Shown here in pieces: positions 49,145-64,000 of a stretch of 64,000 bases of DNA. A program made the position numbers and the translations under genes. The stretch comes from Burkholderiales bacterium (GTDB lineage Bacteria; Pseudomonadota; Gammaproteobacteria; Burkholderiales; SG8-39): NCBI GenBank assembly GCA_050246035.1, contig JBFWWT010000002.1, positions 38,980 through 102,979 of the forward strand, in the 5' to 3' direction. The notes under the pieces are model-generated. The model did no database searches and was not told the DNA's origin. It saw only the letters and a program-made list of their open reading frames with translations. Each line of letters starts with the position of its first letter. The first letter of the stretch is position 1.

Positions 49145-50450
49145 CGCGCTCGCCGCCGTGGCGCTGGCGGCCTACGCGGGCGCCTTCGCCGGTCGCTTTC
49201 AGTTCGACGACTTCAACGTCATCGTCCACCAGGAGGCGGTGCACTCGCTCGGCGCGTGGTGGGACTCGATGCCGGGAATCCGGCCGCTGCTCAAGCTCTC
49301 CTACGCGCTGTCCTGGATCGCGGGCGGCGGCGGCGAGACCGCGTTCCACCTCGTCAACGTCGCGCTGCACATGGGCAACGGGCTCCTCGTCTGGGCGATC
49401 CTGCGCGCGCTCTTCGAGCGCATGGGCGTCGGCGGCGACGGCTTTGCCGCGTTCGCCGGGGCGCTCCTCTTCGTGCTGCACCCGGCGCACACCGAGGCGG
49501 TGACCTACCTCTCCGGCCGCTCGGTGTCGCTGATGGCGCTGTGCTACCTCGGCGCGGTGCTCGCGCACCTGCGCGAGTCGCCGCGCTGGGTCTCGCTGCT
49601 GCTCTTCGCGCTCGCGCTCGGGGTGAAGGAGGTGGCGGTGACGCTGCCCGCGGCGCTCGTGCTGTGCGAGGTGCTCGACCTGCGCCGCCCGTTCCGCTGG
49701 CGAGAGGCGCTCGCGCGCACCTGGCCCCATTGGGCCTTGCTGCTCGCAGGGATCGCCCTCATGGCCGCGCTACCGCGTTACCGCGAGATGCTGGCGACGA
49801 GCCTCGCGCTGCGCGCGCCGCCCGAGCAGCTCGGACTGCAGCTCGGCGCGCTCGCGCGCCACGTGGGCGTCCTGATCCTCGCCGTGCCGCCGAACATCGA
49901 TCCTCAGGTGCCGTCGCTGCCCGCCGGCACGGCCTTTGCGGTGCTCGCCGCCGCCGGTGTCGGCCTTGCGCTGATACGCGCGCAGCCGTGGGTCGCGCTC
50001 GCGCTGCTGTGGTTCCTGCTGCACCTCGCGCCGACCAACTCGTTCCTGCCGCGGCTCGACGCGGCGAACGACCGCCAGCTTTACCTCGCCTCGATCGGGC
50101 CGCTCGCGCTCGCGGGCTTCGCCCTGTCGCTCCTGCCGCGCGGGCGGCTCCCTGGCACGGGCCTGCTGGCGCTCGCGCTTGCCGCCGGCACGGTCCTGCG
50201 CAACCAGGACTACCGCTCGGAGGTCGCGCTGTGGAGCGACACGGTGCGCCACTCGCCGGAGCGCGCGCGCGCCTGGAACAACCTGGGCTATGCGCTGCAG
50301 CTCGAGGGGAAGGGGCAGCAGGCCTGCGCCGCCTACGCGCGGGCGCTGGCGCTCGATGCGGAGCAGGTGCGCGCGCGCGTGAACGCGGTCGAGCTCAGAT
50401 GTAGCCCGGCCCCTCGATCGGCGGGTGCTGCGCCAGGAACGCCTCGTTGA
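49113..50450 (+). CDS. Polytopic membrane protein with a C-terminal TPR repeat (PMT/ArnT-like glycosyltransferase-fold candidate)
   Basis: 445 aa. N-terminal FDDFNVI motif, about 9 hydrophobic helices, C-terminal TPR-like AWNNLGYALQLEGKGQQACAAYARALALD. Confidence 0.65.
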   Translation: MPSWNGRWRASALAAVALAAYAGAFAGRFQFDDFNVIVHQEAVHSLGAWWDSMPGIRPLLKLSYALSWIAGGGGETAFHLVNVALHMGNGLLVWAILRALFERMGVGGDGFAAFAGALLFVLHPAHTEAVTYLSGRSVSLMALCYLGAVLAHLRESPRWVSLLLFALALGVKEVAVTLPAALVLCEVLDLRRPFRWREALARTWPHWALLLAGIALMAALPRYREMLATSLALRAPPEQLGLQLGALARHVGVLILAVPPNIDPQVPSLPAGTAFAVLAAAGVGLALIRAQPWVALALLWFLLHLAPTNSFLPRLDAANDRQLYLASIGPLALAGFALSLLPRGRLPGTGLLALALAAGTVLRNQDYRSEVALWSDTVRHSPERARAWNNLGYALQLEGKGQQACAAYARALALDAEQVRARVNAVELRCSPAPRSAGAAPGTPR

Positions 50451-51546
50451 CCTCCACCCCGAGCCCCGGCTTGTCCGCGGGCCAGACGTGGCCGTCCTTG
50501 TCCACCTGCCCGGGGTTCGGCACCAGCTCATCGCGGAACAGGTTCGACTTCGACACGTCGCCCTCGAAATAGCCGCCGTTGTCGATCGCGCAGAGGAAGT
50601 GGATGGTGGCGGCGTGGTTCAGGCCCGTCATCGAGCTGTGCGGGTGGATCGGCAGCTTCCACGCCGAGGCGATCGCGGCGATGCGCAGCGCCTCGGTGAT
50701 GCCGCCGGTCTTCGACAGGTCCGGCTGCAGGATGGAGATCGCGCCGTCCTCGATCACGCGGTTGAACTCGTATCGCGTGTAGTGGTTCTCGCCCGCGGCG
50801 AGCGGCGTGCGGCCGAAAGTCCTGGCGAGCGCGTAGCTGCGATGGTCGTGCGCGGGGAAGGGCTCCTCCAGCCAGCCGACGTTCAGCTCGTCCATGCCCG
50901 GCATCACGCGGCGCACGTCCTCCACGCGGTAGCCGATGTTCGCGTCGGTGAGGATGACGAGATCGTCGCCGCAGGCCTTGCGCACGGCGGCGATGCGCTC
51001 GAGGTCGCGTTTCACGGAATCGCCGACGCGCAGCTTCACCGCCTGGTAGCCCGCCTCCAGGCTCTTCCTCAGCTCCTCGAGCAGCTGCGCGGGCGGCTGG
51101 TAGCCGAGCGACACGCCGCCGGCGTAGGCGGGAACGCCTTTCCGGGCCCCGCCCAGCAGCTTGTAGAGCGGCACGCCGAGCGCCTTGCCGCGGATGTCCC
51201 ACAGCGCCATGTCGATGCCGCTCATCGCGAGGCAGGCGCCCGCGCCCATGCCGTGGCTCGCGAGCTGCTTGTCGTAGATGCGCTTCCAGACGCCGACGAC
51301 GTCGGAGGCGTCCATGCCGACGATCAGCGTCTTCAGCGTGGTCTCGATGAGCTTCGCGACCGCCGTGTGCGCTCGCCCGTGGTGCGACTCGCCCCAGCCG
51401 ACCAGGCCGCCCGCAGTAGTCACCTTGACCACCACCGCGTCGCGCTTGATCGCGGTGCCGATGCCGAGCGAGACGCGGTGCGCGGGGGGGACGGGGAAGG
51501 AGGTCGGAAACGCCTTGATCTCAGCGATCTTCAGGTCGGCGGACAT
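50395..51546 (-). CDS. Mandelate racemase/muconate-lactonizing enzyme (enolase superfamily) protein
   Basis: 383 aa. Capping and barrel domain pattern (GWGESHH, ALWDIRGKALGVPLYKLLGG, DANIGY, LEEPF). Confidence 0.9.
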   Translation of the reverse strand: MSADLKIAEIKAFPTSFPVPPAHRVSLGIGTAIKRDAVVVKVTTAGGLVGWGESHHGRAHTAVAKLIETTLKTLIVGMDASDVVGVWKRIYDKQLASHGMGAGACLAMSGIDMALWDIRGKALGVPLYKLLGGARKGVPAYAGGVSLGYQPPAQLLEELRKSLEAGYQAVKLRVGDSVKRDLERIAAVRKACGDDLVILTDANIGYRVEDVRRVMPGMDELNVGWLEEPFPAHDHRSYALARTFGRTPLAAGENHYTRYEFNRVIEDGAISILQPDLSKTGGITEALRIAAIASAWKLPIHPHSSMTGLNHAATIHFLCAIDNGGYFEGDVSKSNLFRDELVPNPGQVDKDGHVWPADKPGLGVEVNEAFLAQHPPIEGPGYI

Positions 51547-52495
51547 CCCAGGCCTCCGGGTTGACGAGCGTCTCGGGCTTCTCGCCCGCCAGCATGCCCA
51601 GCGTCAGCTCGGCCGCGCGCACGCTCGAGCGCGCGCGCGACTCGTGCGTGCTGCCCGCGAGATGCGGCGTGAGGATGACGTTGTTCAGCGCGAAAAGCGG
51701 GTGCCCGGCCTGGATGCGGTAATGCTCGTAGACGTCGAGCATGGCGCCGGCGATGCGCCGCTCGTGCAGCGCGTCGATGAGCGCCGCCTCGTCCACGACC
51801 GGCCCGCGGCCGACGTTGATCAGCCAGGCCGTGCGCTTCATGGCCGCGAGCCGCGGGGCGCCGAAGAGGTGGTGCGTATCCGCGTTGAGGGGGCAGGCGA
51901 GCACCACGAAGTCGGACTGCGCGACGAGGTGGTCGAGGTCCGCGGGCTCGGCCTCGGGCGGCAGGCGCTCGAGCCGCCGCTGGTGGCCGAGCACGCGCAT
52001 GCCGAAGCCGTGCCGGCAGATGGCCGCGACCCGCCGGCCGATCTCGCCGACGCCTACGATACCCGCGGTCATGCCGGCGATCTCGTGCGCGGGCATGGCG
52101 AGCGCGCGCGCTTCGTCCCAGGGCCTGTCGCGCATGGCCGAGGTGATGGCCATCACGTTGCGCGCGAGCATGAGCATCGCCATCGCGCAGTACTCGGCGA
52201 CCGACTGCGCGTTCTCGCCCGGGAGATTGGCGACCGGCACGCCGCGCGCGGTGGCTTCGGCGAGCGGCACGAGGTCGATACCGGTGCCGTGGATGGTGAC
52301 GGCGCGCAGCCCCGGGGCCGCCGCGAAGATGTCGTCGGGAAGCTTGGAGCGGATGATGACGGCGTCGGCCTCGGCCGCGAGCCGCTTCACCGTGCCCGCG
52401 TTGCCGTCCGGCGCCCGCACGACCTCGGCGCCGCGGCTGCGCAGCAGCTCTTCGCCCGAGGCGTCGATCGGGTCGGTGAGAAGCACGCGCGTCAT
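51521..52495 (-). CDS. D-2-hydroxyacid dehydrogenase family protein (NAD-binding)
   Basis: 324 aa. GxGxxG motif in GIVGVGEIGRRV. Also INVGRGPVVDE and TPHLAGST. Confidence 0.9.
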   Translation of the reverse strand: MTRVLLTDPIDASGEELLRSRGAEVVRAPDGNAGTVKRLAAEADAVIIRSKLPDDIFAAAPGLRAVTIHGTGIDLVPLAEATARGVPVANLPGENAQSVAEYCAMAMLMLARNVMAITSAMRDRPWDEARALAMPAHEIAGMTAGIVGVGEIGRRVAAICRHGFGMRVLGHQRRLERLPPEAEPADLDHLVAQSDFVVLACPLNADTHHLFGAPRLAAMKRTAWLINVGRGPVVDEAALIDALHERRIAGAMLDVYEHYRIQAGHPLFALNNVILTPHLAGSTHESRARSSVRAAELTLGMLAGEKPETLVNPEAWDVRRPEDR

Positions 52496-54081
52496 GCGAG
52501 CAGCGCGTCGGCGAAGGCGTCGTCCGCCGGGGCGAGCGGATCGCGCGGCTCGAGCCGGTGCCGGCGCACGAGCCGCGCGAGCAGGGCGCGGCGCGGCAGC
52601 GTCCTGCCTTCACGCTCGAGGATCGCGGCGGCGCAGGCGTAGTAGAGGGCGGTGGCGGCCTGGCGCGCGTGGGCTTCGTCGGCCGAGCGCGCGAACTCCG
52701 CCGCCTTGCCGAGGTCGAGCTCGATCGCCTCGAGCGCCCTTTCCTTGCGGATGGCGCGCAGGACGTCCAGCGCGACGATGTTCGAGGTGCCCTCCCAGAT
52801 CGAGCCGAGGTGCGCATCGCGCAGCAGGCGGGCGTCGGACCACTCCTCGGTGTAGCCGACGCCGCCGCGCACCTCCATCGCGTCGCCGGTCACCCGGCGC
52901 GCGTCGCGACAGGCGCGGAACTTCAGGAGCGGCGTGAGCAGCCGCACGCGCCGGCGCGCCTCGTCGTCGCCCGCGTCGGCCTTGGCGAGCTCCACGGCGG
53001 TGTAGAGCATCACCGAGCGCGCGGCCTCCGCGGGCACCGCGAGCTTGAGGAGCTGCCGGCGCATGAGCGGGAACTCGACGAGCCGCTTGCCGAAGGCGAC
53101 GCGCCGGTGCGCTACGAACAGCGCTTCCGTCAACGCGCGCCGCATCATGCCGGCGGCGCGCATGCCGTTCGACAGTCGCGACATGTTGATCATGTCGGCC
53201 ATCTGCACGAAGCCGCGCTGCGGGTCGCCCACGAGATACGCGAGCGCGCCTTCCAGCCGGATCTCGCCGCTCGGCATGTCGCGCGTGCCCAGCTTGTCCT
53301 TCAGGCGAACGATGCGGTAGCTGTTCAGCGCACCGTCGGGCAGCACGCGCGGCAGCAGGAAGAGCGACAGCCCTTTCGTGCCCGCGGGCGCGTCGTCGGG
53401 GCGTGCGAGCACGAGGGCGAGCGCGGCGTCGGCGTTCGAGCAGAACCACTTGTCGCCGTAGAGCCGCCAGGCGCCGTCCTCCTGCACCGCGCGCGTGGCG
53501 GTCGCGCCGACGTCCGAGCCCGCGCCCTGCTCGGTCATGAACATCGCGCCTTGCGCGAGCGCGTCGAGGTCCTGCTCGGTCAGGCCCGGCAGGTAGCGCG
53601 CGACGAGCTCCGGGTCGCCGAACTTCCTGAGCGTTCTCGCGAGCGCGTCGGTCATCGAGAGCGGGCAGCAGACGCCGAACTCGGCCTGCACGTACAGGTA
53701 GGTGAGAGCGTACTTGGCGACCGCCGGCAGGGGCTCGGCCCAGCCGAGCACGCCGCCGCGATGCGACATCGCCGCGAGCCCGTACTCGGAGAACGCGACT
53801 TCCTCCAGGCGCCGGTAGGACGGATGCTTTTCGATCCACTGCCGGTCCTCTCCGGTGCGCGCGCGATGGTGCAGCGCCGGCGGGTTGCGGTCGGCGGTCG
53901 CGGCGAGCCGGTCGAGCTCGCCGCCGGCGAGCGCGCCGAGCCGCTCGAAGTGCGGCAGCAGGTGATCGAGCAGCGGCGCCTCCATGTACAGGCGCAGCAG
54001 GTCGGCGAAGTCCGGGTCCGCGAGGAACAGGTTCGTGCCGCGGCTGTCGGGCAGCGCGGCGGCGGCCATGGAAGCGTTCAT
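52492..54081 (-). CDS. AidB-like acyl-CoA dehydrogenase family protein
   Basis: Start at MNASMAAAALPDSRGTNLF (an alternative ATG at 54069 is possible). Long ACAD with an N-terminal extension (FMTEQGAGSD, GDKWFCSN), as in AidB-type enzymes. Confidence 0.85.
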   Translation of the reverse strand: MNASMAAAALPDSRGTNLFLADPDFADLLRLYMEAPLLDHLLPHFERLGALAGGELDRLAATADRNPPALHHRARTGEDRQWIEKHPSYRRLEEVAFSEYGLAAMSHRGGVLGWAEPLPAVAKYALTYLYVQAEFGVCCPLSMTDALARTLRKFGDPELVARYLPGLTEQDLDALAQGAMFMTEQGAGSDVGATATRAVQEDGAWRLYGDKWFCSNADAALALVLARPDDAPAGTKGLSLFLLPRVLPDGALNSYRIVRLKDKLGTRDMPSGEIRLEGALAYLVGDPQRGFVQMADMINMSRLSNGMRAAGMMRRALTEALFVAHRRVAFGKRLVEFPLMRRQLLKLAVPAEAARSVMLYTAVELAKADAGDDEARRRVRLLTPLLKFRACRDARRVTGDAMEVRGGVGYTEEWSDARLLRDAHLGSIWEGTSNIVALDVLRAIRKERALEAIELDLGKAAEFARSADEAHARQAATALYYACAAAILEREGRTLPRRALLARLVRRHRLEPRDPLAPADDAFADALLA

Positions 54082-54153
54082 GAGCACTGCCGGATATTGT
54101 CGCCTCTTTTGCCGGCCTTGACCCGGAGGGCGGGCCCTCGGCAAGATGCGCTC

Positions 54154-54417
54154 ATGCGCATCGCCGCCTGCTGTTTCGCAGCTCTTGCCACCACCGCCCT
54201 CGCGCCCGCCAAGGCAGCCGACGACGCGAAGCTCTTCGAGGCGCGCTGCGGGAAGTGCCACACCGTGGAGAAGCTCGCGCCGGGGCTCGCGAAGCGCGCG
54301 GCCGCGGCGCGCGAGCGCCACCTGGAGCGGTTCCTGCAGCGGCATTACGCGCCCGACGCGGCGGAGCGCAAGCGCCTCGCCGCCTGGCTGGGCGCGCAGG
54401 CCGACGCGAAGCGCTAG
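54154..54417 (+). CDS. Small secreted protein with a single CXXCH heme c-binding motif (87 aa)
   Basis: Signal peptide MRIAACCFAALATTALAPAKA, then FEARCGKCHT. Possible promoter upstream (TTGACC 54118-54123, about 18 nt, CAAGAT 54142-54147). It occupies the end of a longer spurious ORF (52558..54417). Confidence 0.55.
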   Translation: MRIAACCFAALATTALAPAKAADDAKLFEARCGKCHTVEKLAPGLAKRAAAARERHLERFLQRHYAPDAAERKRLAAWLGAQADAKR

Positions 54418-54421
54418 CGGC

Positions 54422-55738
54422 TCAGTCGTATTCGAAGCGCTCGAACACGATCTGCCGGGAAGGCATGCCCGCCTCGCGCAGGTGCCGCGCGCAGGCGAGC
54501 ATCATCGGCGTCGGCCCGCAGAGGAACGCGAGGCACCGGGCCGGATCGCCGCGGATCGCACCGCGCAGCGCCTCGGCGGTGAGCGCGCCCACGCTTCCCG
54601 CCCAGCCCGCGGAGGGCTCGTCCACGAAGAAGCTCGCGCGCAGGTCGAGCGCCGCCGCCATGGCGCGGATCTCGTCGGCGTGCACGAGCTGGCGCTCGTC
54701 GCGCGCGCCGTAGACCAGGCTCACGGGGCGCGGGTCGCGCCGCGCGTGGAGGTGGCGCAGCAGGCCCATCACCGGTGCGATGCCGATGCCGCCCGCGATG
54801 AGCGCGATGGTCTCGCCCTGCCGGCCGCGCAGGGAGAAGTTGCCGTGCGGCGCATCGAGATACGCGCGCGCCCCGGGGGCAAGTTCATCGAGCGCGCCGC
54901 TGAAATCGCCGCGCGCCTTGATGAGCAGGCGCACCTGCGGCGCGGACTCGGGCGCCGAGCTGAGGGAGAACGGGTGGTCGAGAAATGTGAGCGGCGGCTG
55001 CCCGAGGAGCACCCAGGCGAACTGGCCCGCGTCGTAGCGCAGTGCCCGGCCCGACGCCGGCTCGAGCACGATCTCGCGGATGCCGCGGCCGATCTCCTCG
55101 TTCGACACGACGCGGTGCGCGCCGCGCATCAGCACGAAGGGCTTGACCAGCCACAGGTAGGCCCAGAGGGCGAGCGCGAAGGCGGCGAGCGCCCACCAGT
55201 AGCGCGACAGCCAGGGCGCGCCGCTGTAGAACCCGGTCGCGAGCGCGTGGTGCGCGCCGCCGATGGCCACGAGCAGCGCGGCGAGCGAGTGGCTGGCGCG
55301 CCACCACTCGTATTTGAGACCGAGCCGATTGCGCAGCACCGCGAAGCCGACCAGCGCGAGCAGCAGCACCCAGGCGAGGACGCCCGAGAGCAGGTGCGGC
55401 GCGCTGAACAGGCGCGCGGCGCGCGCCGGCAGCTCGCGCCAGCCATCGGGATCGAGCGGCAGGAGAAAGAGCAGGGGGTGCAGCAGCACGAGCACCGTCA
55501 GCGCGCGCGCGGCGAGCTGGTGAAAGCGCATCGTGTGGTCGATGCCGGCGCGCCCCGAGAGCCACTCGTAGCGCCCGGACGAGATGAACTGCAGCAGGAG
55601 CATCGCGAGCGCGACGAGCCCGGTGGCCGCCGCGAGCTCGCGCACCAGACCGCTGCCGCTCAGGCCCTCCAGCGCGCCGATGACCAGCGGCAGGAGCGCG
55701 AGGATCGCGTAAGCCGCGATCAGGGCGGGAAGCGGCAT
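54422..55738 (-). CDS. Ferric-reductase-like transmembrane domain fused to an FAD/NAD(P)-binding oxidoreductase domain (bacterial NOX/FRE-like)
   Basis: 438 aa. Six TM helices with conserved His residues, an FAD motif HPFSLSS, NAD motifs GGIGIAPV and LCGP. Confidence 0.8.
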   Translation of the reverse strand: MPLPALIAAYAILALLPLVIGALEGLSGSGLVRELAAATGLVALAMLLLQFISSGRYEWLSGRAGIDHTMRFHQLAARALTVLVLLHPLLFLLPLDPDGWRELPARAARLFSAPHLLSGVLAWVLLLALVGFAVLRNRLGLKYEWWRASHSLAALLVAIGGAHHALATGFYSGAPWLSRYWWALAAFALALWAYLWLVKPFVLMRGAHRVVSNEEIGRGIREIVLEPASGRALRYDAGQFAWVLLGQPPLTFLDHPFSLSSAPESAPQVRLLIKARGDFSGALDELAPGARAYLDAPHGNFSLRGRQGETIALIAGGIGIAPVMGLLRHLHARRDPRPVSLVYGARDERQLVHADEIRAMAAALDLRASFFVDEPSAGWAGSVGALTAEALRGAIRGDPARCLAFLCGPTPMMLACARHLREAGMPSRQIVFERFEYD

Positions 55739-56518
55739 CTACTCCCGGAACGACGGATCGCGCCGGTCGAGCATCCTGAGCAGCGCGGGCCACTCGAGCT
55801 CGGTGATCTTGCGCCGCTTGCCCGGCGCGTAGCGCTCGTTGGTCACGCGGACGACGTCCGGCGACGGGTGGTTGAGCTCGGCGTTGCAGGCCATCGCCAT
55901 CACCTGCGCCTGGCAGGCGCGCTCCAGCCAATGCAGCACGACGAAGGCCTCGCACACGGTGCGACCGGCCGTGAGCAGGCCGTGGTTGCGCAGGATCATC
56001 GCGGCGGCCGAGCCGAGATCCTTCACCAGGCGCCGCTGCTCGTCGAGGTCGATCGCCGGGCCTTCGTAGTCGTGATAGGCGATCTCGCCGAAGAACATGG
56101 CGTTCTGCGTGAGCGGCAGCAGCCCGCACTTCAGGGCCGACACGGCCATGCCGGCGGGCGAGTGCGTGTGGATCACGCAGCCCACGTCCTCGCGGCCGCG
56201 GTGGATGGCGCTGTGGATGACGAAGCCCGCCTGGTTGATGCCGTAGCCGGTTCCCGAATCGAGCACCACGTTGCCGTCGAAGTCGATCTTGACGAGGCTC
56301 GAGGCGGTGACTTCCTCGTAGGCGTAGCCGTAGGCATTGATGAGGAAATGGCCTTCCTCGCCCGGCACGCGCGCGGTGGCGTGATTGTAGACGAGGTCGT
56401 TCATGCCGAAGTGCGCGATCAGGCGGTAGCAGGCGGCGAGATCGACGCGCGCCTGCCATTCCTCCGCGCTCACCTGGCTGCGCAGCGACGGGATGCTCAC
56501 GTGCGAGAGATCGGTCAT
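55739..56518 (-). CDS. Class II aldolase/adducin-domain protein
   Basis: Start at MTDLSHVSIPSL. Metal-binding His context CVIHTHSPAG. About 259 aa. The stop abuts the next start with no gap. Confidence 0.85.
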   Translation of the reverse strand: MTDLSHVSIPSLRSQVSAEEWQARVDLAACYRLIAHFGMNDLVYNHATARVPGEEGHFLINAYGYAYEEVTASSLVKIDFDGNVVLDSGTGYGINQAGFVIHSAIHRGREDVGCVIHTHSPAGMAVSALKCGLLPLTQNAMFFGEIAYHDYEGPAIDLDEQRRLVKDLGSAAAMILRNHGLLTAGRTVCEAFVVLHWLERACQAQVMAMACNAELNHPSPDVVRVTNERYAPGKRRKITELEWPALLRMLDRRDPSFRE

Positions 56519-57669
56519 AGCGTGTCCTTCGTTCCGAGTAGCGCGGTGATCTGGCTGGAAAGTACGCCTCCGTTGCCGTGCGCGAGGGCGACCGCGGCGT
56601 CCTTCACCTGGCGCGCCCCGCATTCGCCCCGCAATTGTCGCACCGCTTCGACGACGAGGAAGATGCCGTACATGCCCGGATGCACGCAGGAGAGCCCCCC
56701 GCCGTTCGTGTTCACGGGCAGGCCGCCGCCCGGCGCGATGCGCCCGCCGGCGACGAAGCCGCCGCCTTCGCCCTTCTCGCAGAAGCCGAGGTCCTCGAGA
56801 AAGAGCAGCGTGTTGATGGTGAAGGCGTCGTAGAGCTCCAGCACGTCCACGTCGGCGGGGCCGAGGCCGGCCATCTCGTAGGCGCGCCGGCCGGATTCGG
56901 TCGCCGCGGTCACGGTGAGGTCGGGCATCGAGGAGATCTGCCGGTGCCAGTGTGCTGCGCCCGCGCCGAGGAGGTAGACGGGCGCCTTGCGGAATTCCTG
57001 CGCGCGCTCGGCGCGCGTCAGCACGTAGGCGCCGCCGCCGTCGGTGACCAGGCAGCAGTCGCGCACGGTGAGGGGGTCGCTCACCATGCGCGAGCCGAGC
57101 ACCTCGTCCACCGTGAGCGGCTCGCGCGCGAAGGCCTCGGGGTTGAGGCTCGCCCACTGGCGCGCGGCCACCGCGATCGCCGCGAGCTGCTCGCGCTTCG
57201 TGCCGTACTGGTGCATGTGGCGCGCGGCGGCGAGCGCGTAGGAGGTGGGGGGATTGAACGGCTTGTAAGGATGCTCGAAAGGCTGCGGGTCGAGCGCCAT
57301 CTTGTAGCGGCCGGCCTCCGCCCGGCCCACGCCCGTCCTCTGGTTCGAGCCGTAGGCGACGAGCACCGTGTCGCACAAGCCCGCGTTCAGCGCGAGCGCG
57401 GCGGGAATCAGATGGCCCACGAAGGAGGAGCCGCCCACCATCGTGGACTCGGTGAACTTCGGCTGCAGCCCCAGGTGCTCGGCGAGCGCCAGCCCCGACA
57501 TGAAGATGTTGGTGCTGGCGACGACCACGCCGTCGACGTCGCGCAGGCTCAGGCCGGCATCGGCGAGCGCGTTCTTCGCCGCGGCCGCCGCGATCTCCAT
57601 CTCGCTCCAGCCCGGTGCCTCGCCGCAGCCGGCGAGCCCCACGCCCGCGATCGCGACCGAGCCCCTCAT
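56515..57669 (-). CDS. Thiolase-fold protein of the SCP-x/lipid-transfer type (DUF35 partner)
   Basis: Start at MRGSVAIAGVGLAG. C-terminus ...NTNGGGLSCVHPGMYG typical of this thiolase subgroup. ATGA overlaps on both sides. Confidence 0.85.
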   Translation of the reverse strand: MRGSVAIAGVGLAGCGEAPGWSEMEIAAAAAKNALADAGLSLRDVDGVVVASTNIFMSGLALAEHLGLQPKFTESTMVGGSSFVGHLIPAALALNAGLCDTVLVAYGSNQRTGVGRAEAGRYKMALDPQPFEHPYKPFNPPTSYALAAARHMHQYGTKREQLAAIAVAARQWASLNPEAFAREPLTVDEVLGSRMVSDPLTVRDCCLVTDGGGAYVLTRAERAQEFRKAPVYLLGAGAAHWHRQISSMPDLTVTAATESGRRAYEMAGLGPADVDVLELYDAFTINTLLFLEDLGFCEKGEGGGFVAGGRIAPGGGLPVNTNGGGLSCVHPGMYGIFLVVEAVRQLRGECGARQVKDAAVALAHGNGGVLSSQITALLGTKDTL

Positions 57670-58025
57670 GCGGGCACGAACTCCACGAGGCCGTCGGCGA
57701 TGCGGGCCTTCACCGACATGCCGATGTGTACCTCCGCGGGCGGGATGCCGACAACGCGGCTCATCATGCGCACGCCCTCGTCGAGGTCCACGAGGCAGAC
57801 GTTGTAGTCGCCGCCGTCGGCGGGCTTGCGGCGCACGACCGTAGTCGAGTACACCGCGCCGCGGCCGCTCGGCGCGACCCAGTCGAGGCGGTCCGCGCCG
57901 CAGTGGGGGCAGAGGACGCGCGGGTAGAAGACGTGCCTGGCGCAGGCAGCGCACTTCTGGATCTCGAAGCGCCCTTCCTTGAGCGCATCCAGATAGCGCT
58001 TCTCAGGCCCGCAGGGTGGCGACAT
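57666..58025 (-). CDS. DUF35 family Zn-ribbon/OB-fold protein
   Basis: 119 aa. Zn ribbon CAACARHVFYPRVLCPHCG followed by an OB-fold region. Confidence 0.8.
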   Translation of the reverse strand: MSPPCGPEKRYLDALKEGRFEIQKCAACARHVFYPRVLCPHCGADRLDWVAPSGRGAVYSTTVVRRKPADGGDYNVCLVDLDEGVRMMSRVVGIPPAEVHIGMSVKARIADGLVEFVPA

Positions 58026-58224
58026 GCTGTCCTTCGGCGACCTGCTCGCCTTCGGCGACGTGCAGCGATTCGAGCGTGCCGTCGGCGGGGGCGGGCACCG
58101 GGATTTCCATCTTCATGCACTCGACGAGGAGCAGCGTATCCTCGGCGGCCACGCGGCTGCCGGCCTGCGCCTCGATGCGCACCACCTTGCCCGCCACCTC
58201 GCAGCGCACGTGAAACGTCGGCAT
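58003..58224 (-). CDS. Free-standing biotinyl/lipoyl carrier domain protein (73 aa)
   Basis: Start at MPTFHVRCEVAGKV. Biotinylation-type motif ECMKMEIPV. Overlaps the DUF35 start by 23 nt. Confidence 0.75.
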   Translation of the reverse strand: MPTFHVRCEVAGKVVRIEAQAGSRVAAEDTLLLVECMKMEIPVPAPADGTLESLHVAEGEQVAEGQHVATLRA

Positions 58225-58276
58225 GCGCGGGCGATTATGGCAGGACAGGCGTGCAACAATCGAGCCCGAACTCGAA

Positions 58277-59164
58277 ATGATCTCCACACCCGTCCCGGCG
58301 GTGCGCGGCATGCTGTGGATGGCGGCCTCGGGGCTGCTGTTCATCTTCCTCAATACGATCATGAAGCGCCTGTCCCACGATCTCGACCCCTGGCTCGTGG
58401 GCTTCCTGCGCTACGCGCTCGGCGCCCTGGTCATGGTCGGGACGTCGCTGCCCGGCGGGCTCGCGGCGCTCTGGCCGAAGGCGCCCGGGCTGCAGCTCGT
58501 GCGCGGCCTTTTCCATACCGGGGGCATGATGCTGTGGTTCGCCGCGCTGCCCTTCGTCACGCTCGCCGAGCTGACCGCGATCGGCTTCTCCGGGCCGATC
58601 TTCATCTGCATCGGCGCGGTGCTGTTCCTCAGCGAGCGCATGACGGGCGCGCGCTGGACGGCCGTGCTGGTGGGATTCGCCGGCGTGCTGCTCGTGGTGA
58701 AGCCGGGACAGGCCGAGGGCTTTGCGGGAATCTCCCACGGCATGCTCCTCATGCTCGCCTCGGCGCCCGTGTTCGCGGGCTCGTACCTCGTCGCCAAGGC
58801 GCTCACGCGCTACGACCGCTCGGACGTCGTGGTGCTGTGGCAGCACGCGTGGGTGTCGATCCTGCTCGCGCCGTTCGCGCTCGCCTTCTGGAGCCCGCCG
58901 AGCGCCGTGCAGTGGGCGTTCCTCGTCGCCTGCGGCTTCCTCGGCGCGGGCGGTCACTACTGCATGGTGCGCGCGTTCCGCATCGCCGACATCTCGGCGA
59001 CGCAGTCCGTGAAGTTCCTCGAGCTGGTCTGGGCGGCGATCCTCGGCTGGATCGTCTTCGGCACGGCGCCGGCGGGGGCGACGGTGGCGGGCGGGATCGT
59101 GATCTTCGCTTCGACGCTGCTGCTCGCGCGGCACGAGTCGCGCTCGGCGGCGCGCGCCGCATGA
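58277..59164 (+). CDS. EamA/DMT-family transporter
   Basis: Start chosen at MISTPVPAVRGMLWMAASG. An upstream ATG at 58223 would overlap the divergent biotinyl-protein start. Ten hydrophobic helices. Confidence 0.8.
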   Translation: MISTPVPAVRGMLWMAASGLLFIFLNTIMKRLSHDLDPWLVGFLRYALGALVMVGTSLPGGLAALWPKAPGLQLVRGLFHTGGMMLWFAALPFVTLAELTAIGFSGPIFICIGAVLFLSERMTGARWTAVLVGFAGVLLVVKPGQAEGFAGISHGMLLMLASAPVFAGSYLVAKALTRYDRSDVVVLWQHAWVSILLAPFALAFWSPPSAVQWAFLVACGFLGAGGHYCMVRAFRIADISATQSVKFLELVWAAILGWIVFGTAPAGATVAGGIVIFASTLLLARHESRSAARAA

Positions 59165-60735
59165 ACGGGCTCGTCGCCTCGCCGCACCGCCTCGCCTCCG
59201 CCGCCGGCGCCGACGTGCTGCGCGCGGGCGGCTCGGCGGTGGATGCGGCGATCGCCACGAGCGCGGCGCTCTGCGTGCTCTATCCGCACATGACCAGCAT
59301 CGGCGGCGACGCTTTCTGGCTGATCCACGAGGGCGCGAGCGGCGCCGTGCGCTACCTCGGAGGCGGCGGGCAGGCGGCCGCGAGCGCAACGCCGGAGTGG
59401 TTCCGTGCGCGCGGCCATGCCGAGATTCCGCTGAAAGGGATCCTGCCCGCGACGCTCACGGTTCCCGGGGCGGTGGCGAGCTGGGCGGAGGCGCATGCGC
59501 GCTACGGCCGCCTGCCGCTCGCGCGCTGCCTCGAGCAGGCGATCGGCTACGCGCGCGAGGGCGCGCCGGTCAGCGCGCGCGTCGCGCGTTTCATCGAGGG
59601 CGCGAAAGCCGAGCTGGCCGACTGCCCCGAGGCCGCGGCGATCTTCCTGCAGGGCGGGGCCACGCTCGTCAACCCGGGGCTCGCGCGGTCGCTGGAGCGC
59701 ATCGCGCAGGACGGCCGCGCCGGCTTCTACCAAGGCGAGACGGCGAGGGCGTTGACGCGCTACGCCGAGGCGAACGGCGGCTTTTTTCGCATGGACGACC
59801 TGGCGGCGCAGCGCGCGCAATGGGGCGAGCCGCTCGTCGGCACCTATCGCGGCGTGACGATCTACCAGACGCCGCCGCCGACCCAGGGTTTCACCGTGCT
59901 GCAGATGCTCAACCTCGTGGAGCCGTTCGAGCTGCACCGACTGCCGCTGCTCGGTCCGGATCGCGCGCACCTGCTGGTGCAGGCGAAGCAGATCGCCTAC
60001 CACGACCGCGACCGCTATCTCGCCGACCCGCGCTTCGCCGAGGTGCCGGTCGAGCGACTGATCTCCAAGGCCTATGCCGACGAGCGGCGCAAGCTGATCG
60101 ATCCGCAACGCGCGCTCGCGTGGGACGAGGTGCCTTCGTACGGCTCCCTGGCGGGCGACACCGTGTACGTCTCGGCGATCGACGGGGACGGCAATGCCGC
60201 GTCGCTGATCCAGAGCCTGTACGGGGTCTTCGGCTCGGGCGTGGTCGCGGGCGAGACGGGCATCCTGCTGCAGAACCGCGGCGCCTACTTCAACCTCGAC
60301 CCCGCACATCCGAATGTGCTGCAGCCGGGCAAGATCCCGCTGCACACGCTGATCGCCTCGTTGGGAAAGCGCGACGGCAGGCTCTGGAGCGTCTTCGGCT
60401 GCATGGGCGCCGACGGCCAGCCGCAGATCCACCTGCAGGCCTACACCGCGATGATCGACCACGGGCTCGACATCCGGCAGGCGGTGGAGATGCCGCGCTT
60501 CCTCTCGGGCCGCTTCGCGCTCGGCGAGGCGCGCGACACGCTGCACATCGAAGCGCGCTTCCCGCGCGCCACGATCGACGAGCTCGAGCGTCGCGGGCAT
60601 CTCCTTGACCGCTGGGGCGACTGGAACGAGTTCGCCGGGCACGCCCACGGCATCGTCGTCGATCCGAAGACCGGCGAGCCGGCGGGCGGCGCCGACCCGC
60701 GCAGCGACGGCGCGGCTATGATCCCGCCGGCATGA
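59161..60735 (+). CDS. Gamma-glutamyltransferase family protein (no signal peptide)
   Basis: Start at MNGLVASPHRLASAAGADVL (ATGA overlap). Autoprocessing and nucleophile context GDTVYVSAID. About 524 aa. Confidence 0.9.
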   Translation: MNGLVASPHRLASAAGADVLRAGGSAVDAAIATSAALCVLYPHMTSIGGDAFWLIHEGASGAVRYLGGGGQAAASATPEWFRARGHAEIPLKGILPATLTVPGAVASWAEAHARYGRLPLARCLEQAIGYAREGAPVSARVARFIEGAKAELADCPEAAAIFLQGGATLVNPGLARSLERIAQDGRAGFYQGETARALTRYAEANGGFFRMDDLAAQRAQWGEPLVGTYRGVTIYQTPPPTQGFTVLQMLNLVEPFELHRLPLLGPDRAHLLVQAKQIAYHDRDRYLADPRFAEVPVERLISKAYADERRKLIDPQRALAWDEVPSYGSLAGDTVYVSAIDGDGNAASLIQSLYGVFGSGVVAGETGILLQNRGAYFNLDPAHPNVLQPGKIPLHTLIASLGKRDGRLWSVFGCMGADGQPQIHLQAYTAMIDHGLDIRQAVEMPRFLSGRFALGEARDTLHIEARFPRATIDELERRGHLLDRWGDWNEFAGHAHGIVVDPKTGEPAGGADPRSDGAAMIPPA

Positions 60736-62279
60736 GCTGGGAAAAGGAGCTGGAGGAGCTCGCGCGGCGCAAGGCGCTCGCCGCGCAGATGGGCGGCGCG
60801 GAGAAGGTCGCGCGCCACAAGGCTCAAGGGCGGCTTACGGTGCGCGAGCGCATCGACGCTTTGGTGGACGCGGGGAGCTTCCACGAGATCGGCAGCATCG
60901 CCGGCAAGGCGAGCTACGACGCCGAAGGGAACATCTCGGGATTCGTTCCCGCCAACCTCGTCATGGGCCGCGCGAGGATCGACGGTCGGCCGGTGGCGGT
61001 GGCGGGCGACGACTTCACGGTGCGCGGCGGCGCGGCCGACGCCGCGATCCGCGGCAAGCTGGTCACCGTCGAGCGCATGGCGCAGGACCTGCGCATCCCG
61101 CTCGTGCGCCTGGTGGATGGCACGGGCGGCGGCGGCTCGGTGAAGTCGATCGAGATCGAGGGCAGGACGCTCCTGCCGAGCATCCCCATGTGGCAGCTGT
61201 GCGTCGACAACCTGTCGCAGGTGCCTGTAGTGGCGCTCGCGCTCGGCTCGGTCGCGGGGCTAGGGGCGGCGCGCGTCGCCGCGAGCCACTACTCCGTGAT
61301 CGTGAAGGACACCGCGCAGATGTTCGTCGCCGGCCCGCCGGTGGTGGCGCGCGTGGGCGAGGTCCTCGACAAGAACGAGCTCGGCGGGAGCGAGATCCAC
61401 ACGAAGAACGGCGCCATAGACGACGAGGCCGCGAGCGAGCAGGAAGCCTTCGCAATGGCGAAGCGTTTCCTGTCCTATCTCCCCGGCTCGGTGCACGAGC
61501 TGCCCGCGCGCACCGAGCCGAAGGACGACCCCAGGCGGCGCGACGAGTGGCTGCTGGGCGCGATCCCGCGCGATTCGCGCAAGGTCTACAAGATGCGGCC
61601 GATCGTCGAGGCGCTCATGGATCAGGGCAGCTTCTTCGAGATCGGCCGGCGCTGGGGCAAGCCGGTGATCACGGGGCTCGCGCGACTGGACGGCTGGCCG
61701 GTCGCGGTGATGGCGAGCGACCCATACCACTACGGCGGCGCGTGGACCGCGGACGCCTGCGACAAGGTGATCCGCCTGGTCGACCTTGCCCAAACCTTCC
61801 ACTTGCCGGTCGTGCATCTCGTGGACGTGCCTGGATTTCTCATCGGCAAGGAAGCCGAGGAGGCGGGCACGATCCGCCACGGGGCGCGCGCCATGCAGGC
61901 CATCTACCAGTGCACGGTGCCGTGGTGCGCGATCCTGGTGCGCAAGGTCTACGGCGTGGCGGGCGCGGCGCACATGAACCCGGCGCGCTATTGCATGCGC
62001 TACGCCTGGCCTTCGGGCGACTGGGGGTCGCTGCCCATCGCGGGCGGGCTGGAAGCGGCCTACAAGGCCGAGCTCGAGGCCGCGCCGGACCCGAAGGCGA
62101 AGCTCGCCGAGATCGAGGCGCGGCTGGAAAAGCTCCGCTCGCCCTTCCGCAGCGCGGAGTCCTACATCGTGGAGGAGATCATCGACCCGCGCGACACGCG
62201 CGCCCTCCTCACCGAGTTCGCGAATCTCGCCGCGCCGCTGCGCACGCCGGGGCCGCCAAGCTTCGGCTACCGGCCATGA
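60732..62279 (+). CDS. Acyl-CoA carboxylase carboxyltransferase subunit (PccB/MmdA-like)
   Basis: 515 aa. N- and C-terminal crotonase-like halves (DDFTVRGGA, FHLPVVHLVDVPGFLIG, EEIIDPRDTR). Its last 444 nt include repeat copy 1. Confidence 0.9.
   Translation: MSWEKELEELARRKALAAQMGGAEKVARHKAQGRLTVRERIDALVDAGSFHEIGSIAGKASYDAEGNISGFVPANLVMGRARIDGRPVAVAGDDFTVRGGAADAAIRGKLVTVERMAQDLRIPLVRLVDGTGGGGSVKSIEIEGRTLLPSIPMWQLCVDNLSQVPVVALALGSVAGLGAARVAASHYSVIVKDTAQMFVAGPPVVARVGEVLDKNELGGSEIHTKNGAIDDEAASEQEAFAMAKRFLSYLPGSVHELPARTEPKDDPRRRDEWLLGAIPRDSRKVYKMRPIVEALMDQGSFFEIGRRWGKPVITGLARLDGWPVAVMASDPYHYGGAWTADACDKVIRLVDLAQTFHLPVVHLVDVPGFLIGKEAEEAGTIRHGARAMQAIYQCTVPWCAILVRKVYGVAGAAHMNPARYCMRYAWPSGDWGSLPIAGGLEAAYKAELEAAPDPKAKLAEIEARLEKLRSPFRSAESYIVEEIIDPRDTRALLTEFANLAAPLRTPGPPSFGYRP
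61836..62255 (+). repeat. Direct repeat copy 1 (420 bp, identical to 63581-64000)
   Basis: Base-by-base comparison of TTTCTCATCGGCAAGGAAGCCGAGG...CGCACGCCGGGGCCG with 63581-64000 found no mismatch. The flanks to the left of each copy are unrelated. Confidence 0.95.
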
Positions 62280-64000
62280 CGCTACGTGCGGCGCTCCAAC
62301 CGCGTTCGATCGCCGTGATCGGCGCTTCCGACAACCCGCACAAGGTGGGCGGCCGGCCGATCCTGTACATGAAGCGCTACGGCTATCGCGGCGCGATCTA
62401 CCCGATCAATCCCGGCCGAGCGGAGGTGCAGGGGCTGAAAGCGTACAAGGCGATCGCTGAGACGCCGGAAGCACCCGACCTCGCGATCATCGCCGTGGCC
62501 GGAGACGAGGCGGTGCGCGCGGTTGACGAATGCGCGGCGCGGGGCGTGCAGGTGGCCGTGGTGATGACTTCGGGCTTCGGCGAGCTGGGCGAGGAGGGCA
62601 GGCGCGCGCAGGCGCGCATGGCCGCCTCGGCGAAAGCCGCCGGCATGCGCCTGGTCGGGCCGAATTGCCAGGGGCTCGCGAACTTTGCCACCGGCGCGGT
62701 GGCGAACTTCTCCACCGTGTTCCACGAGATCGAGGCGCGCGACGGGCCCGTGGCCATCGTGAGCCAGAGCGGCGCCTGCTCGCAGGCGATCTACATCCTC
62801 GCGCGCCAGCGCGGCCTGGACGTGCGCCACGTGCACGCCACCGGCAACGAGGCCGACGTCACGGTGGCCGATCTCGCCGAGGAAATCGTGCAGGAAGAAG
62901 GCGTGCAGCTCGTGCTCCTTTACATGGAGGCGATCCAGCGGCCCGAGGCGCTCGCGCGCGCGGCCGCGATCGCGCGCGAGCGCGAGCTGCCCATCGTCGC
63001 GGTGAAGGCCGGGCGCACGGCGAGCGGCGTGCGCGCGGCTTCCTCGCACACGGGCGCGCTCGCGAGCGAGGACCGCGTGATCGACGCGTTCTTCGAGCAG
63101 CACGCCATCTGGCGCGCGGCCGATCCGCAGGAGCTCGTCGCCGCGGGGCAGCTCTACCTGCAGGGCGGACGGCCGAGAGGGCGGCGCTTCGTCGCCGTGA
63201 GCAACTCGGGCGCGAGCTGCGTGATGGCGGCCGACGCCGCAGAGGAGATGGGCCTCGAGTTGCCCCAGTTCGACGAGGCGACGCAGGCCAAGCTGCGGCA
63301 GGTGCTCCCCGCTTTCGCGACGCCTTCGAACCCGCTCGACGTCACCGGCGCACTGTTGAATGACAGCAGCCTGATCGGCGGCTCGCTCGAGGCGCTGGGC
63401 GCGGCCGATGCCTGCGACCTGCTCATGCTCGCGATCCCCATCGCGGGCGCGGGCTACGACGTGCCGCGCTTCGCGCGCGACGCGGCGGCGTATCGCGAGC
63501 GCCATGGCAAGGCGCTCGCCGTAGCGGCTCCGCAGCCCGAGGTGCGCGAGACGTTCGAGAAGCGCGGGTTGCCCGCCTTTTTTCTCATCGGCAAGGAAGC
63601 CGAGGAGGCGGGCACGATCCGCCACGGGGCGCGCGCCATGCAGGCCATCTACCAGTGCACGGTGCCGTGGTGCGCGATCCTGGTGCGCAAGGTCTACGGC
63701 GTGGCGGGCGCGGCGCACATGAACCCGGCGCGCTATTGCATGCGCTACGCCTGGCCTTCGGGCGACTGGGGGTCGCTGCCCATCGCGGGCGGGCTGGAAG
63801 CGGCCTACAAGGCCGAGCTCGAGGCCGCGCCGGACCCGAAGGCGAAGCTCGCCGAGATCGAGGCGCGGCTGGAAAAGCTCCGCTCGCCCTTCCGCAGCGC
63901 GGAGTCCTACATCGTGGAGGAGATCATCGACCCGCGCGACACGCGCGCCCTCCTCACCGAGTTCGCGAATCTCGCCGCGCCGCTGCGCACGCCGGGGCCG
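62276..64000 (+). CDS. Acetate-CoA ligase (ADP-forming)/CoA-binding family protein, N-terminal ~435 aa, fused in frame to a duplicated carboxyltransferase C-terminus. Open at the window end.
   Basis: ATGA overlap with the upstream stop. MTLRAALQPRSIAVIGASDNPHKVGG...VGPNCQG (CoA-binding and ligase-CoA domains). No stop through 64000. At 63581 the translation switches to FLIGKEAEEAGTIRHGARAMQ..., the same as carboxyltransferase residues. Confidence 0.7.
   Translation, partial: MTLRAALQPRSIAVIGASDNPHKVGGRPILYMKRYGYRGAIYPINPGRAEVQGLKAYKAIAETPEAPDLAIIAVAGDEAVRAVDECAARGVQVAVVMTSGFGELGEEGRRAQARMAASAKAAGMRLVGPNCQGLANFATGAVANFSTVFHEIEARDGPVAIVSQSGACSQAIYILARQRGLDVRHVHATGNEADVTVADLAEEIVQEEGVQLVLLYMEAIQRPEALARAAAIARERELPIVAVKAGRTASGVRAASSHTGALASEDRVIDAFFEQHAIWRAADPQELVAAGQLYLQGGRPRGRRFVAVSNSGASCVMAADAAEEMGLELPQFDEATQAKLRQVLPAFATPSNPLDVTGALLNDSSLIGGSLEALGAADACDLLMLAIPIAGAGYDVPRFARDAAAYRERHGKALAVAAPQPEVRETFEKRGLPAFFLIGKEAEEAGTIRHGARAMQAIYQCTVPWCAILVRKVYGVAGAAHMNPARYCMRYAWPSGDWGSLPIAGGLEAAYKAELEAAPDPKAKLAEIEARLEKLRSPFRSAESYIVEEIIDPRDTRALLTEFANLAAPLRTPGP
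63581..64000 (+). repeat. Direct repeat copy 2 (420 bp, truncated by the window end)
   Basis: Identical to 61836-62255, at an offset of 1745 bp. It is in frame with the ORF that starts at 62276. Confidence 0.95.

Follow-up and report, generated by a model that had tools for sequence, protein, structure and literature searches.

A probable mosaic of four modules around a Cys-less thiolase-fold enzyme and its DUF35 neighbour in an uncultured Burkholderiales genome

Five genes that follow one another on the minus strand of a Burkholderiales genome are the subject of this analysis. They lie within a stretch of 64,000 nucleotides (the window, positions 38,980 to 102,979 of contig JBFWWT010000002.1, assembly GCA_050246035.1), and the source genome is a metagenome-assembled genome (MAG) of 2.85 Mb that is 92% complete with a GC content of approximately 72%. 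The open reading frame (ORF) list of the window gives, in order of transcription, a free-standing BCCP-type biotinyl carrier of 73 amino acids (aa) at 58003..58224 (Biotin_lipoyl 1.4e-15, with NCBIfam NF004547 reaching 68 bits, below its cut-off of 75), a stand-alone DUF35 protein of 119 aa at 57666..58025 (zf-ChsH2 5e-14, OB_ChsH2_C 4.5e-20), a thiolase-fold protein of 384 aa at 56515..57669 (Thiolase_C_1 2e-72, NF004811/PRK06158 662 bits), an adducin-type class II aldolase-fold protein of 259 aa at 55739..56518 (Aldolase_II 3e-50, NF005451/PRK07044 350 bits) and a NOX-like ferric reductase (FRE) of 438 aa at 54422..55738 (Ferric_reduct, FAD_binding_8 and NAD_binding_1). Close solved homologs are available for four of the five proteins. 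The first-pass annotation had described these as five overlapping or abutting genes of these families; the coordinates, all four junctions and the motifs were confirmed by direct reading, and the family assignments are right by both Pfam and NCBIfam.

The stop codon of the carrier gene (TGA, 58003-58005) and the start of the DUF35 gene (ATG at 58025) give an overlap of 23 nt that was read directly. The DUF35 and thiolase-fold genes share an ATGA overlap at 57666-57669 (GCATGAGG), as do the thiolase-fold and aldolase-fold genes at 56515-56518 (CTATGACC), and at 55738/55739 the TAG of the aldolase-fold gene is followed at once by the ATG of FRE with zero gap (GAGTAGATG). The 23-nt overlap is also found in the related contigs L015, L100, L108 and L109, thus the overlaps are no accident of this assembly. 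The expectation that the five genes would be found together beyond this genome was borne out, with the five-gene order, the cytochrome gene that faces FRE and the flanking genes all present in L100, L108 and L109, and the order present in part in L101 and L116, as far as these short contigs reach. In these five loci FRE is 71-95% and the thiolase-fold protein 89-96% identical to those described here, and the five-gene order is confined to a narrow clade.

The carrier gene is divergent from an EamA gene, and the 52-bp intergenic region between them (58225..58276) is almost invariant in an alignment of 18 loci. Its 90% consensus is CATTTCGA.TTC.G..CTCGATTGTTGCAC.....T.CTGC.ATAATCG, it holds a TCGA-N8-TCGA element, and these features suggest a shared operator. 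The carrier ATG comes 9 nt after the end of a CATAAT sequence and no Shine-Dalgarno sequence is found there, an arrangement that is compatible with a near-leaderless operon transcript. A scan of 53900-58500 for consensus promoters and terminators found nothing, which is uninformative at 72% GC. The five genes are probably one transcription unit that is read from the conserved promoter region before the carrier gene.

The third protein had been called an SCP-x-type thiolase, a name that holds for its fold but not for its chemistry, as the catalytic Cys is missing. Its best match in the PDB is 4U4E (381 bits), followed by the bile-acid aldolase Sal (9MYR, 199 bits) and Ltp2, an aldolase of the cholesterol side chain (6OK1, 184 bits), with the true thiolases scoring lower (7YVY 157, BbsB 150 and an archaeal thiolase 130 bits). 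At the N-terminal end of helix N-alpha3, where thiolases carry their nucleophilic Cys, Gly80 is found; the surrounding VGGSS aligns with LGGAS of Sal, and by counting the 9MYR chain from Tyr302 Gly80 corresponds to Gly89 of CtSal. An alternative alignment by HMMER to 7YVY places Met77 at the nucleophile position, likewise no Cys. The position of Gly89 has been equated with that of the thiolase nucleophile, and this was given as the reason why Sal does not carry out thiolysis (PMC12329534). With a Gly at the nucleophile position thiolysis would thus be impossible for the enzyme described here, and the name thiolase or acetyl-CoA acetyltransferase that databases give to this family is probably wrong.

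The other active-site residues can be followed through 107 distinct thiolase-fold relatives of at least 55% identity. G79, G80, Y280, the D, A and F that follow it, H330 and Y334 are invariant in all 107, and C328 is conserved in 101, with Tyr, Trp or Phe in the remaining 6. The HDCF/HDAF/NEAF motif of thiolases, which reads HDAF in 7YVY and BbsB, is replaced by Y280-D-A-F throughout, and Y280 aligns with Tyr302 in Sal and Tyr294 in Ltp2, both of them catalytic. It is this Tyr of the YDxx motif that acts as the catalytic base in Ltp2 (YDHF) and Sal (YDCY) (PMC12329534). The catalytic His of the thiolase G-H-P loop is retained as H330 within VHPG, which aligns with the GHP of 7YVY and BbsB.

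The DUF35 protein has a classical Cys4 zinc ribbon (C25/C28/C39/C42) and an OB fold, and its ranking in the PDB follows that of its neighbour, with ChsH2 of the Ltp2 complex at 67 bits, Shy of the Sal complex at 55 bits and the DUF35 protein of the archaeal thiolase/HMGCS complex at 29 bits. It is encoded directly upstream (58-96% identity) in every locus whose contig extends upstream of the thiolase-fold gene, and the two form the only invariant pair of the locus, found from Alcaligenaceae and Comamonadaceae to Rhodobacteraceae and Streptomyces in many different contexts. Homologs are also known from strains of Bordetella petrii, Variovorax, Comamonas and Advenella. The DUF35 protein is predicted to be the partner and scaffold of the thiolase-fold enzyme.

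The complexes ChsH2-Ltp2 (6OK1) and Shy-Sal (9MYR) are the best-scoring solved relatives of the DUF35 protein, and of the thiolase-fold protein after 4U4E. They share with the pair described here the SCP-x-type fold, Gly in place of Cys, the base Tyr of the YDxx motif and an obligatory DUF35 partner made of zinc ribbon and OB fold. They differ in that the motif here is YDAF rather than YDHF or YDCY, with the His or Cys two positions after the Tyr missing, and in that H330, the ancestral thiolase His, takes the position of Tyr344 in Ltp2 and of Gln352 in Sal; in addition the DUF35 protein here is a stand-alone protein of 119 aa, not joined to a hydratase domain, and lies in a small MAG with no context of steroid degradation. 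Of the four features of the Ltp2 type, two are seen, the base Tyr (Y280) and the DUF35 partner, the motif His being Ala282 and the catalytic acid Tyr344 being His330. As for the Sal type, both the Tyr and the Gly are present, yet Cys304 is invariantly replaced by Ala282 and the DUF35 ribbon is Cys4 rather than the Cys3His of that type. As both studied aldolases have a second catalytic residue that is missing here, the protein can be filed neither as Ltp2 nor as Sal, and it may represent a third active-site variant of the thiolase-fold aldolases. By analogy with these two it is most likely a retro-aldolase of beta-hydroxyacyl-CoA (3-hydroxyacyl-CoA) esters. The structural genomics entry 4U4E belongs to the same NF004811 family and shares the GGSSF and HPGMYG signatures and the Tyr that opens YDxF, differing in that it has YDSF and carries a Tyr in place of Cys328.

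Whether the remaining genes belong with this pair can be judged from about 170 related loci and 24 genomes of the same genus. The neighbourhoods came from three sets, these being contigs that encode close homologs of the thiolase-fold protein or FRE and that carry pre-computed Pfam calls, the best 80 loci of species-representative genomes matched by the thiolase-fold protein, and the best 80 metagenome loci matched by the aldolase-fold protein, a scan that is unbiased as regards the aldolase-fold gene. The 24 same-genus genomes and 16 further genomes of the same order were searched with four of the proteins, and neighbouring genes were assigned from tblastn, Pfam and called genes. Among the 24 same-genus genomes the aldolase-fold gene is present in 19, the thiolase-fold gene in 16 and the carboxyltransferase described below in 13, and all combinations of presence among the three occur. 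The cluster appears to be decaying in some of these lineages; in G005 the thiolase-fold gene contains an internal TGA (C360:1855-2793), in G018 the match covers residues 1-315 only (C1:229409-230353), and in G016 the match to the carboxyltransferase spans residues 136-515 only and contains a TGA (C11:299051-300190).

The carrier has its biotinylation lysine (K38) within ECMKMEIP, the (C/S)MKMEIP motif is invariant among all intact homologs of the carrier, and a BirA-type ligase is encoded in the genome. Beyond the divergent EamA gene lie a signal-less GGT-family gene (59161-60735, plus strand), a carboxyltransferase (CT) of the PccB/MmdA type (60732..62279, plus strand, Carboxyl_trans 3.8e-87) and an ADP-forming acyl-CoA synthetase gene, which together make up a divergent operon. 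The C-terminal 140 or so residues of the CT occur again at the end of the window, within the frame of the ADP-forming synthetase (61836-64000). It is apparent that the carrier follows the CT: in loci with at least 5 kb of upstream sequence both are present in 11, neither in 16 and the two are discordant in 2. In L020, which has lost the CT, a carrier remnant of 48 aa is left from which exactly the MKM segment is missing (L020:9509-9655), and in L018, where the CT is likewise lost, the carrier has been cleanly excised so that the DUF35 gene now stands behind the same promoter region (L018:7525-8004), with the DUF35, thiolase-fold and aldolase-fold genes intact in both. As the carrier is lost or decays with the CT while the downstream genes stay, it depends on the CT and not on the DUF35/thiolase-fold pair, and it is probably the functional partner of the divergent PccB-type CT. 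The GGT-family gene is optional, being present in L100, L101, L108, L113, L114 and L121 and absent from L015, L109, L126 and L128. In L108 a PIN-domain gene with an 86-aa ORF upstream, likely a toxin-antitoxin pair, is inserted between the CT and the GGT-family gene (L108:1320-2011), which underlines the plasticity of the slot in which these genes lie.

Of the parts of an acyl-CoA carboxylase, the MKM carrier and the CT are present and a dedicated biotin carboxylase (BC) is missing at the locus; no BC was found in the 64-kb window or in the close-clade loci examined. BC homologs occur at two other places of the genome only: AccC is encoded beside AccB on C6, and C25 holds a BC-BCCP fusion together with an MccB-like CT. 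Compared with the dedicated BC found in clusters of the Bordetella petrii type (described below), each of the two shows 44-45% identity. The best PDB matches of the CT are 1X0U, the alpha subunit of methylmalonyl-CoA decarboxylase, and then PCC beta, with MCC and GCC beta lower, and those of the carrier are the gamma chain of methylmalonyl-CoA decarboxylase and transcarboxylase 1.3S, with the free carrier BLAP (1Z6H) also detected. In having a CT and a small carrier without a BC the locus resembles MmdA/MmdC and the 12S/1.3S transcarboxylase, which are the top PDB matches of both proteins, and it differs from them in having neither a membrane beta subunit (OAD_beta) nor a second carboxyltransferase of the 5S type. 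A search for OAD_beta (PF03977) had no match in this genome, which is 92% complete, and control genomes respond to the same search. This leaves two options for the pair, either a BC supplied in trans by AccC or action as a decarboxylase or transcarboxylase.

In a second architecture the carrier, CT and DUF35/thiolase-fold genes are co-directional on a single strand, in the order CT, BC, carrier of about 70 aa (ESMKMEIP), FadB-like protein, DUF35, thiolase-fold protein and CoA transferase, taking up approximately 4.2-12.5 kb in each of L032, L039, L040, L043, L073 and L075. It is carried by Bordetella petrii, two Pollutimonas species, Noviherbaspirillum and a Pseudomonas MAG. Identification of the gene between carrier and DUF35 in the B. 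petrii type as an ADP-forming synthetase was rejected, as it encodes a FadB-like ECH/3HCDH protein. A gene for a Bug/TctC-like binding protein was read in this cluster in L032 and L073 only. An ADP-forming synthetase lies within 7 kb of the DUF35/thiolase-fold pair in 5 of 49 species-level loci, and the link of carrier and CT to the pair is a minority pattern; a pathway shared by the two modules is given a chance of roughly one in three. The suggestion that the locus performs carboxyl-transfer-dependent C-C bond chemistry remains plausible for carrier/CT and DUF35/thiolase-fold, which are joined in two architectures, but does not extend to the rest of the genes. When the literature was searched for DUF35 alongside a biotin carrier, and for class II aldolases alongside a carboxyltransferase, only irrelevant papers came up, and no description of such a combination was found.

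Known systems for the removal of branches offer a comparison. The Liu/Atu pathway clears alkyl branches that block beta-oxidation by carboxylation, hydration and a C-C lyase, and the yng operon of Bacillus subtilis holds the free 73-aa carrier BLAP (PDB 1Z6H). The locus shares with such systems the co-location of a CT, a free single-domain carrier, acyl-CoA activation and a thiolase-fold lyase, and in the relatives of the B. petrii type, whose gene order mirrors this scheme, a BC, a FadB-like hydratase and a CoA transferase are present as well; it differs in that its CT is PccB/MmdA-like rather than MccB/GccB-like, and in that its operon has neither a BC nor a hydratase. In the removal of the C24 branch of sterols, carboxylation and hydration are followed by the thiolase-fold aldol-lyase Ltp3-Ltp4 (PMC6678751).

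The aldolase-fold gene is the syntenic anchor of the region, and in many sister loci it also occurs without DUF35/thiolase-fold and without the carrier. It is directly preceded by EamA in L112, L120, L132, L136 and L138, and by the carrier, with the CT divergent, in L168, L169, L171, L175 and L178, whilst in other sister loci divergent genes for electron transfer flavoprotein (ETF) and acyl-CoA dehydrogenase precede it and a short-chain dehydrogenase/reductase (SDR) of about 300 aa comes after. Four loci that lack DUF35 and thiolase-fold genes (L160, L155, L158 and L172, approximately 7.8-10.5 kb) have the aldolase-fold gene, the SDR of about 300 aa, a Ser/Thr kinase of 590 aa and then the AidB-type dehydrogenase. 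The Aldolase_II match spans positions 2-183 of the 183-position profile, with H117, H119 and H179 as putative metal ligands (HxH...H) at a FucA-like spacing, and the PDB matches are 3OCR, which has no assigned function (245 bits, with the same HxH...H pattern, NF005451/PRK07044), and then adducin head domains. To our knowledge no member of the 3OCR/PRK07044 subfamily has an assigned reaction; the characterised adducin-type relatives act as decarboxylases or oxygenases (NovR, TqaM) or as sugar-phosphate aldolases. The protein is probably an independent, metal-dependent enzyme. This small genome has five further class II aldolase/adducin-type paralogs of 33-53% identity, an unusual expansion (C2:125803-126396, C3:9382-10107, C13:13161-13877, C5:371-1135 and C39:412-954).

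FRE has the characters of the NOX/FRE superfamily, with six transmembrane (TM) hydrophobic segments, two His pairs at bis-heme spacing on TM3 and TM5 (His73/His87 and His150/His163-164) and FAD and NAD(P)H motifs (HPFS at residue 255, GGIGIAP at 316 and CGP at 407), and it matches the SpNOX structures 8QT6 and 8QQ7 with an E-value of about 1e-15. No ortholog was found in any of the 24 same-genus genomes, the best match being 45% identical, and this match belongs to a paralog family that is also found on C43 of this genome. FRE follows the aldolase-fold gene in a single locus of the 80 in the unbiased scan, and is missing in 22 of the 27 informative rows (sister loci) of a tree built on thiolase-fold and aldolase-fold proteins. 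On this tree four of the loci with FRE group as one clade and L109 falls elsewhere, a split that means at least two events of gain or loss. That FRE is a recent one-off insertion was considered and rejected, given these two or more events and homologs of 71-89% identity at the same position in diverged relatives.

Facing FRE, with the two stops 4 nt apart, is a gene for a secreted monoheme cytochrome c of 87 aa with a CGKCH motif (54154..54417, plus strand). Homologs of 67-100% identity are convergent with FRE in L100, L102-L109 and L116, and in the loci examined the cytochrome is present exactly where FRE is and absent wherever FRE is absent, which makes it the sole constant partner of FRE, no cytoplasmic partner being constant. 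A pairing general to the FRE family is not supported by more distant homologs, as no CXXCH ORF was found beside paralogs and homologs of 41-45% identity or beside the 62% homolog in L110. In its six-TM bis-heme domain, FAD/NAD(P)H module and HPFS/GGIGIAP/CGP motifs FRE resembles SpNOX and the MsrQ/YedZ family, from which it differs in being constantly paired with a secreted 87-aa cytochrome c and in lying within an acyl-CoA operon. The constant pairing suggests that the acceptor is a protein, rather than O2 or MsrP, and the two genes suggest a transmembrane route from NAD(P)H to periplasmic cytochrome c. FRE and the cytochrome may well be a lineage-specific electron-transfer add-on. Beyond the cytochrome gene, all on the minus strand and assigned by Pfam, come an AidB-type acyl-CoA dehydrogenase (52492-54084), a D-2-hydroxyacid dehydrogenase (51521-52495) and an MR/MLE-family dehydratase (50395-51546), and in most sister loci, which lack FRE and the cytochrome, these three genes follow directly after the aldolase-fold gene.

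The reading preferred here, with a probability of about 0.6, is that the locus is a mosaic of four separable modules in which the Cys-less thiolase-fold enzyme acts with DUF35 as an aldolase, and is not one enzyme system. The modules would have collected in a slot of variable content, which is part of the acyl-CoA catabolic region of an uncultured Burkholderiales genus and is bordered by the ETF/acyl-CoA dehydrogenase genes on one side and the AidB, 2-hydroxyacid dehydrogenase and MR/MLE genes on the other. In the first module the carrier would serve the divergent CT, either with BC activity from AccC in trans or as a decarboxylase/transcarboxylase pair. In the second, DUF35 and the thiolase-fold protein would form a complex resembling ChsH2(DUF35)-Ltp2 or Shy(DUF35)-Sal, in which Tyr280 would deprotonate the beta-hydroxyl of a 3-hydroxyacyl-CoA, most likely leading to retro-aldol cleavage into a carbonyl compound and acetyl- or propionyl-CoA, with His330 or Cys328 reprotonating the enolate. 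Genes for hydratases of the MFE-2 type or for FadB-like proteins, which often lie beside this pair, speak for such a role. The aldolase-fold protein, probably metal-dependent, would act independently as the third, and in the fourth electrons may pass from NAD(P)H through FAD and two b hemes to cytochrome c. Where modules one and two act together, they would likely perform the removal of a branch, in which a substrate would be activated, carboxylated, hydrated and cleaved by an aldol-lyase.

A number of observations weigh against this reading. Cys304 of Sal and His296 of Ltp2 both correspond to Ala282 here, and Tyr344 of Ltp2 and Gln352 of Sal to His330, so that the aldolase mechanism proposed for this member of the PRK06158/4U4E family is by analogy only. 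In 26 of 60 species loci (approximately 43%) an SDR of the MFE-2 type, a dehydrogenase, is encoded as the nearest neighbour within 4 kb, and a FadB-like ECH/3HCDH protein with its 3-hydroxyacyl-CoA dehydrogenase domain is found in 6 of the 60 and is the neighbour in the B. petrii type; a dehydrogenase neighbour is what would be expected beside a real thiolase. Only 7 of 49 species-level loci (approximately 14%) have a CT within 7 kb of the DUF35/thiolase-fold pair. Wherever FRE is present it abuts or overlaps the stop of the aldolase-fold gene, and it has diverged (71-95%) to roughly the same extent as the genes around it; it may therefore be an old and repeatedly lost member of the cluster that is functionally tied to it, not a recent add-on.

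Amongst the alternatives, it is possible though unlikely that the carrier and CT form a BC-less soluble decarboxylase or transcarboxylase, with the CT moving CO2 from a CoA ester of the malonyl or methylmalonyl type onto the carrier and the thiolase-fold or aldolase-fold protein using or discharging the carboxyl group, for instance through an aldol or Claisen reaction coupled to decarboxylation. The absence of a BC from the locus and the close-clade loci examined and the decarboxylase and transcarboxylase matches of both proteins agree with such a scheme, and as the aldolase-fold gene directly follows the carrier gene in the five sister loci with a divergent CT, the aldolase-fold protein may join a carboxyl-transfer system of this kind. 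We know of no case, however, in which a protein with the class II aldolase fold acts on carboxybiotin, the clusters of the B. petrii type hold a dedicated BC beside homologous CT and carrier, AccC is available in trans, and the genome has no carboxybiotin decarboxylase of the OAD_beta type. Characterised relatives point both ways, as the Cys-less TbSLP is a weak malonyl-CoA decarboxylase but Sal does not decarboxylate malonyl-CoA (PMC12329534).

Rather improbable is that the thiolase-fold protein is a working 3-ketoacyl-CoA thiolase with an unconventional nucleophile (Cys328 or Cys206), serving ordinary R-specific beta-oxidation together with an SDR and a hydratase of the MFE-2 type. NCBIfam and the source annotations do name it acetyl-CoA acetyltransferase, the His of the GHP-like loop is kept, C206 and C328 are conserved, and to the MFE-2-like SDR and FadB-like genes counted above can be added a MaoC hydratase (hydratase-2) within the same distance in 16 of the 60 species loci. 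This is set against Gly at the nucleophile position and Tyr in place of the motif His or Asn in 107 of 107 relatives; C328, moreover, is an aromatic residue in 6 of the 107, C206 is conserved in the aldolase Ltp2 too, and Sal, with the same Gly, is incapable of thiolysis (PMC12329534).

More doubtful again, and very unlikely, is a combined scheme in which a BC-less CT and carrier exchange a carboxyl group with the Cys-less DUF35/thiolase-fold enzyme, with the aldolase-fold protein perhaps joining and, in this lineage, FRE and the cytochrome as a dedicated transmembrane redox outlet. The proposal of the first-pass annotation, a single membrane-linked system of five components, is not supported, as the parts are gained and lost separately, FRE lacks an ortholog in all 24 same-genus genomes and the carrier tracks the CT. 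In its fullest form, one membrane-anchored biotin-dependent C-C bond complex with FRE as membrane or redox subunit, it is highly improbable: translational coupling at all four junctions and the same order and junctions in L100, L108 and L109, and partly in L101 and L116, with FRE at 71-95%, speak for it, but every component is singly dispensable in close relatives that keep the rest, FRE lacks an ortholog in the same-genus genomes and is missing in most sister and aldolase-fold loci, the carrier is lost with the CT and not with DUF35/thiolase-fold, the aldolase-fold gene stands alone beside ETF genes in some loci, and FRE has no constant partner other than a periplasmic cytochrome c.

A caution of method follows from this locus, in that overlapping codons here join modules with separate histories, and overlapping start and stop codons in compact GC-rich genomes do not prove one functional system. 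Smaller leads are a CT and carrier pair without its own BC and a NOX-like reductase whose strict partner is a small cytochrome c of the periplasm; if the BC-less carboxyl-transfer reading were true, the locus would hold a soluble system as yet undescribed, in which aldol or retro-aldol chemistry on CoA esters is coupled to carboxyl transfer by biotin. The notable content of the locus is probably a widespread variant of thiolase-fold aldolase with a stand-alone DUF35 partner that is sometimes coupled to a biotin module. The family, which extends from Burkholderiales to Rhodobacteraceae and Streptomyces, is probably mis-annotated, with thousands of annotations affected, and as its Gly/YDAF/His active site differs from those of both characterised thiolase-fold aldolases, it could be a third retro-aldol solution for CoA esters.

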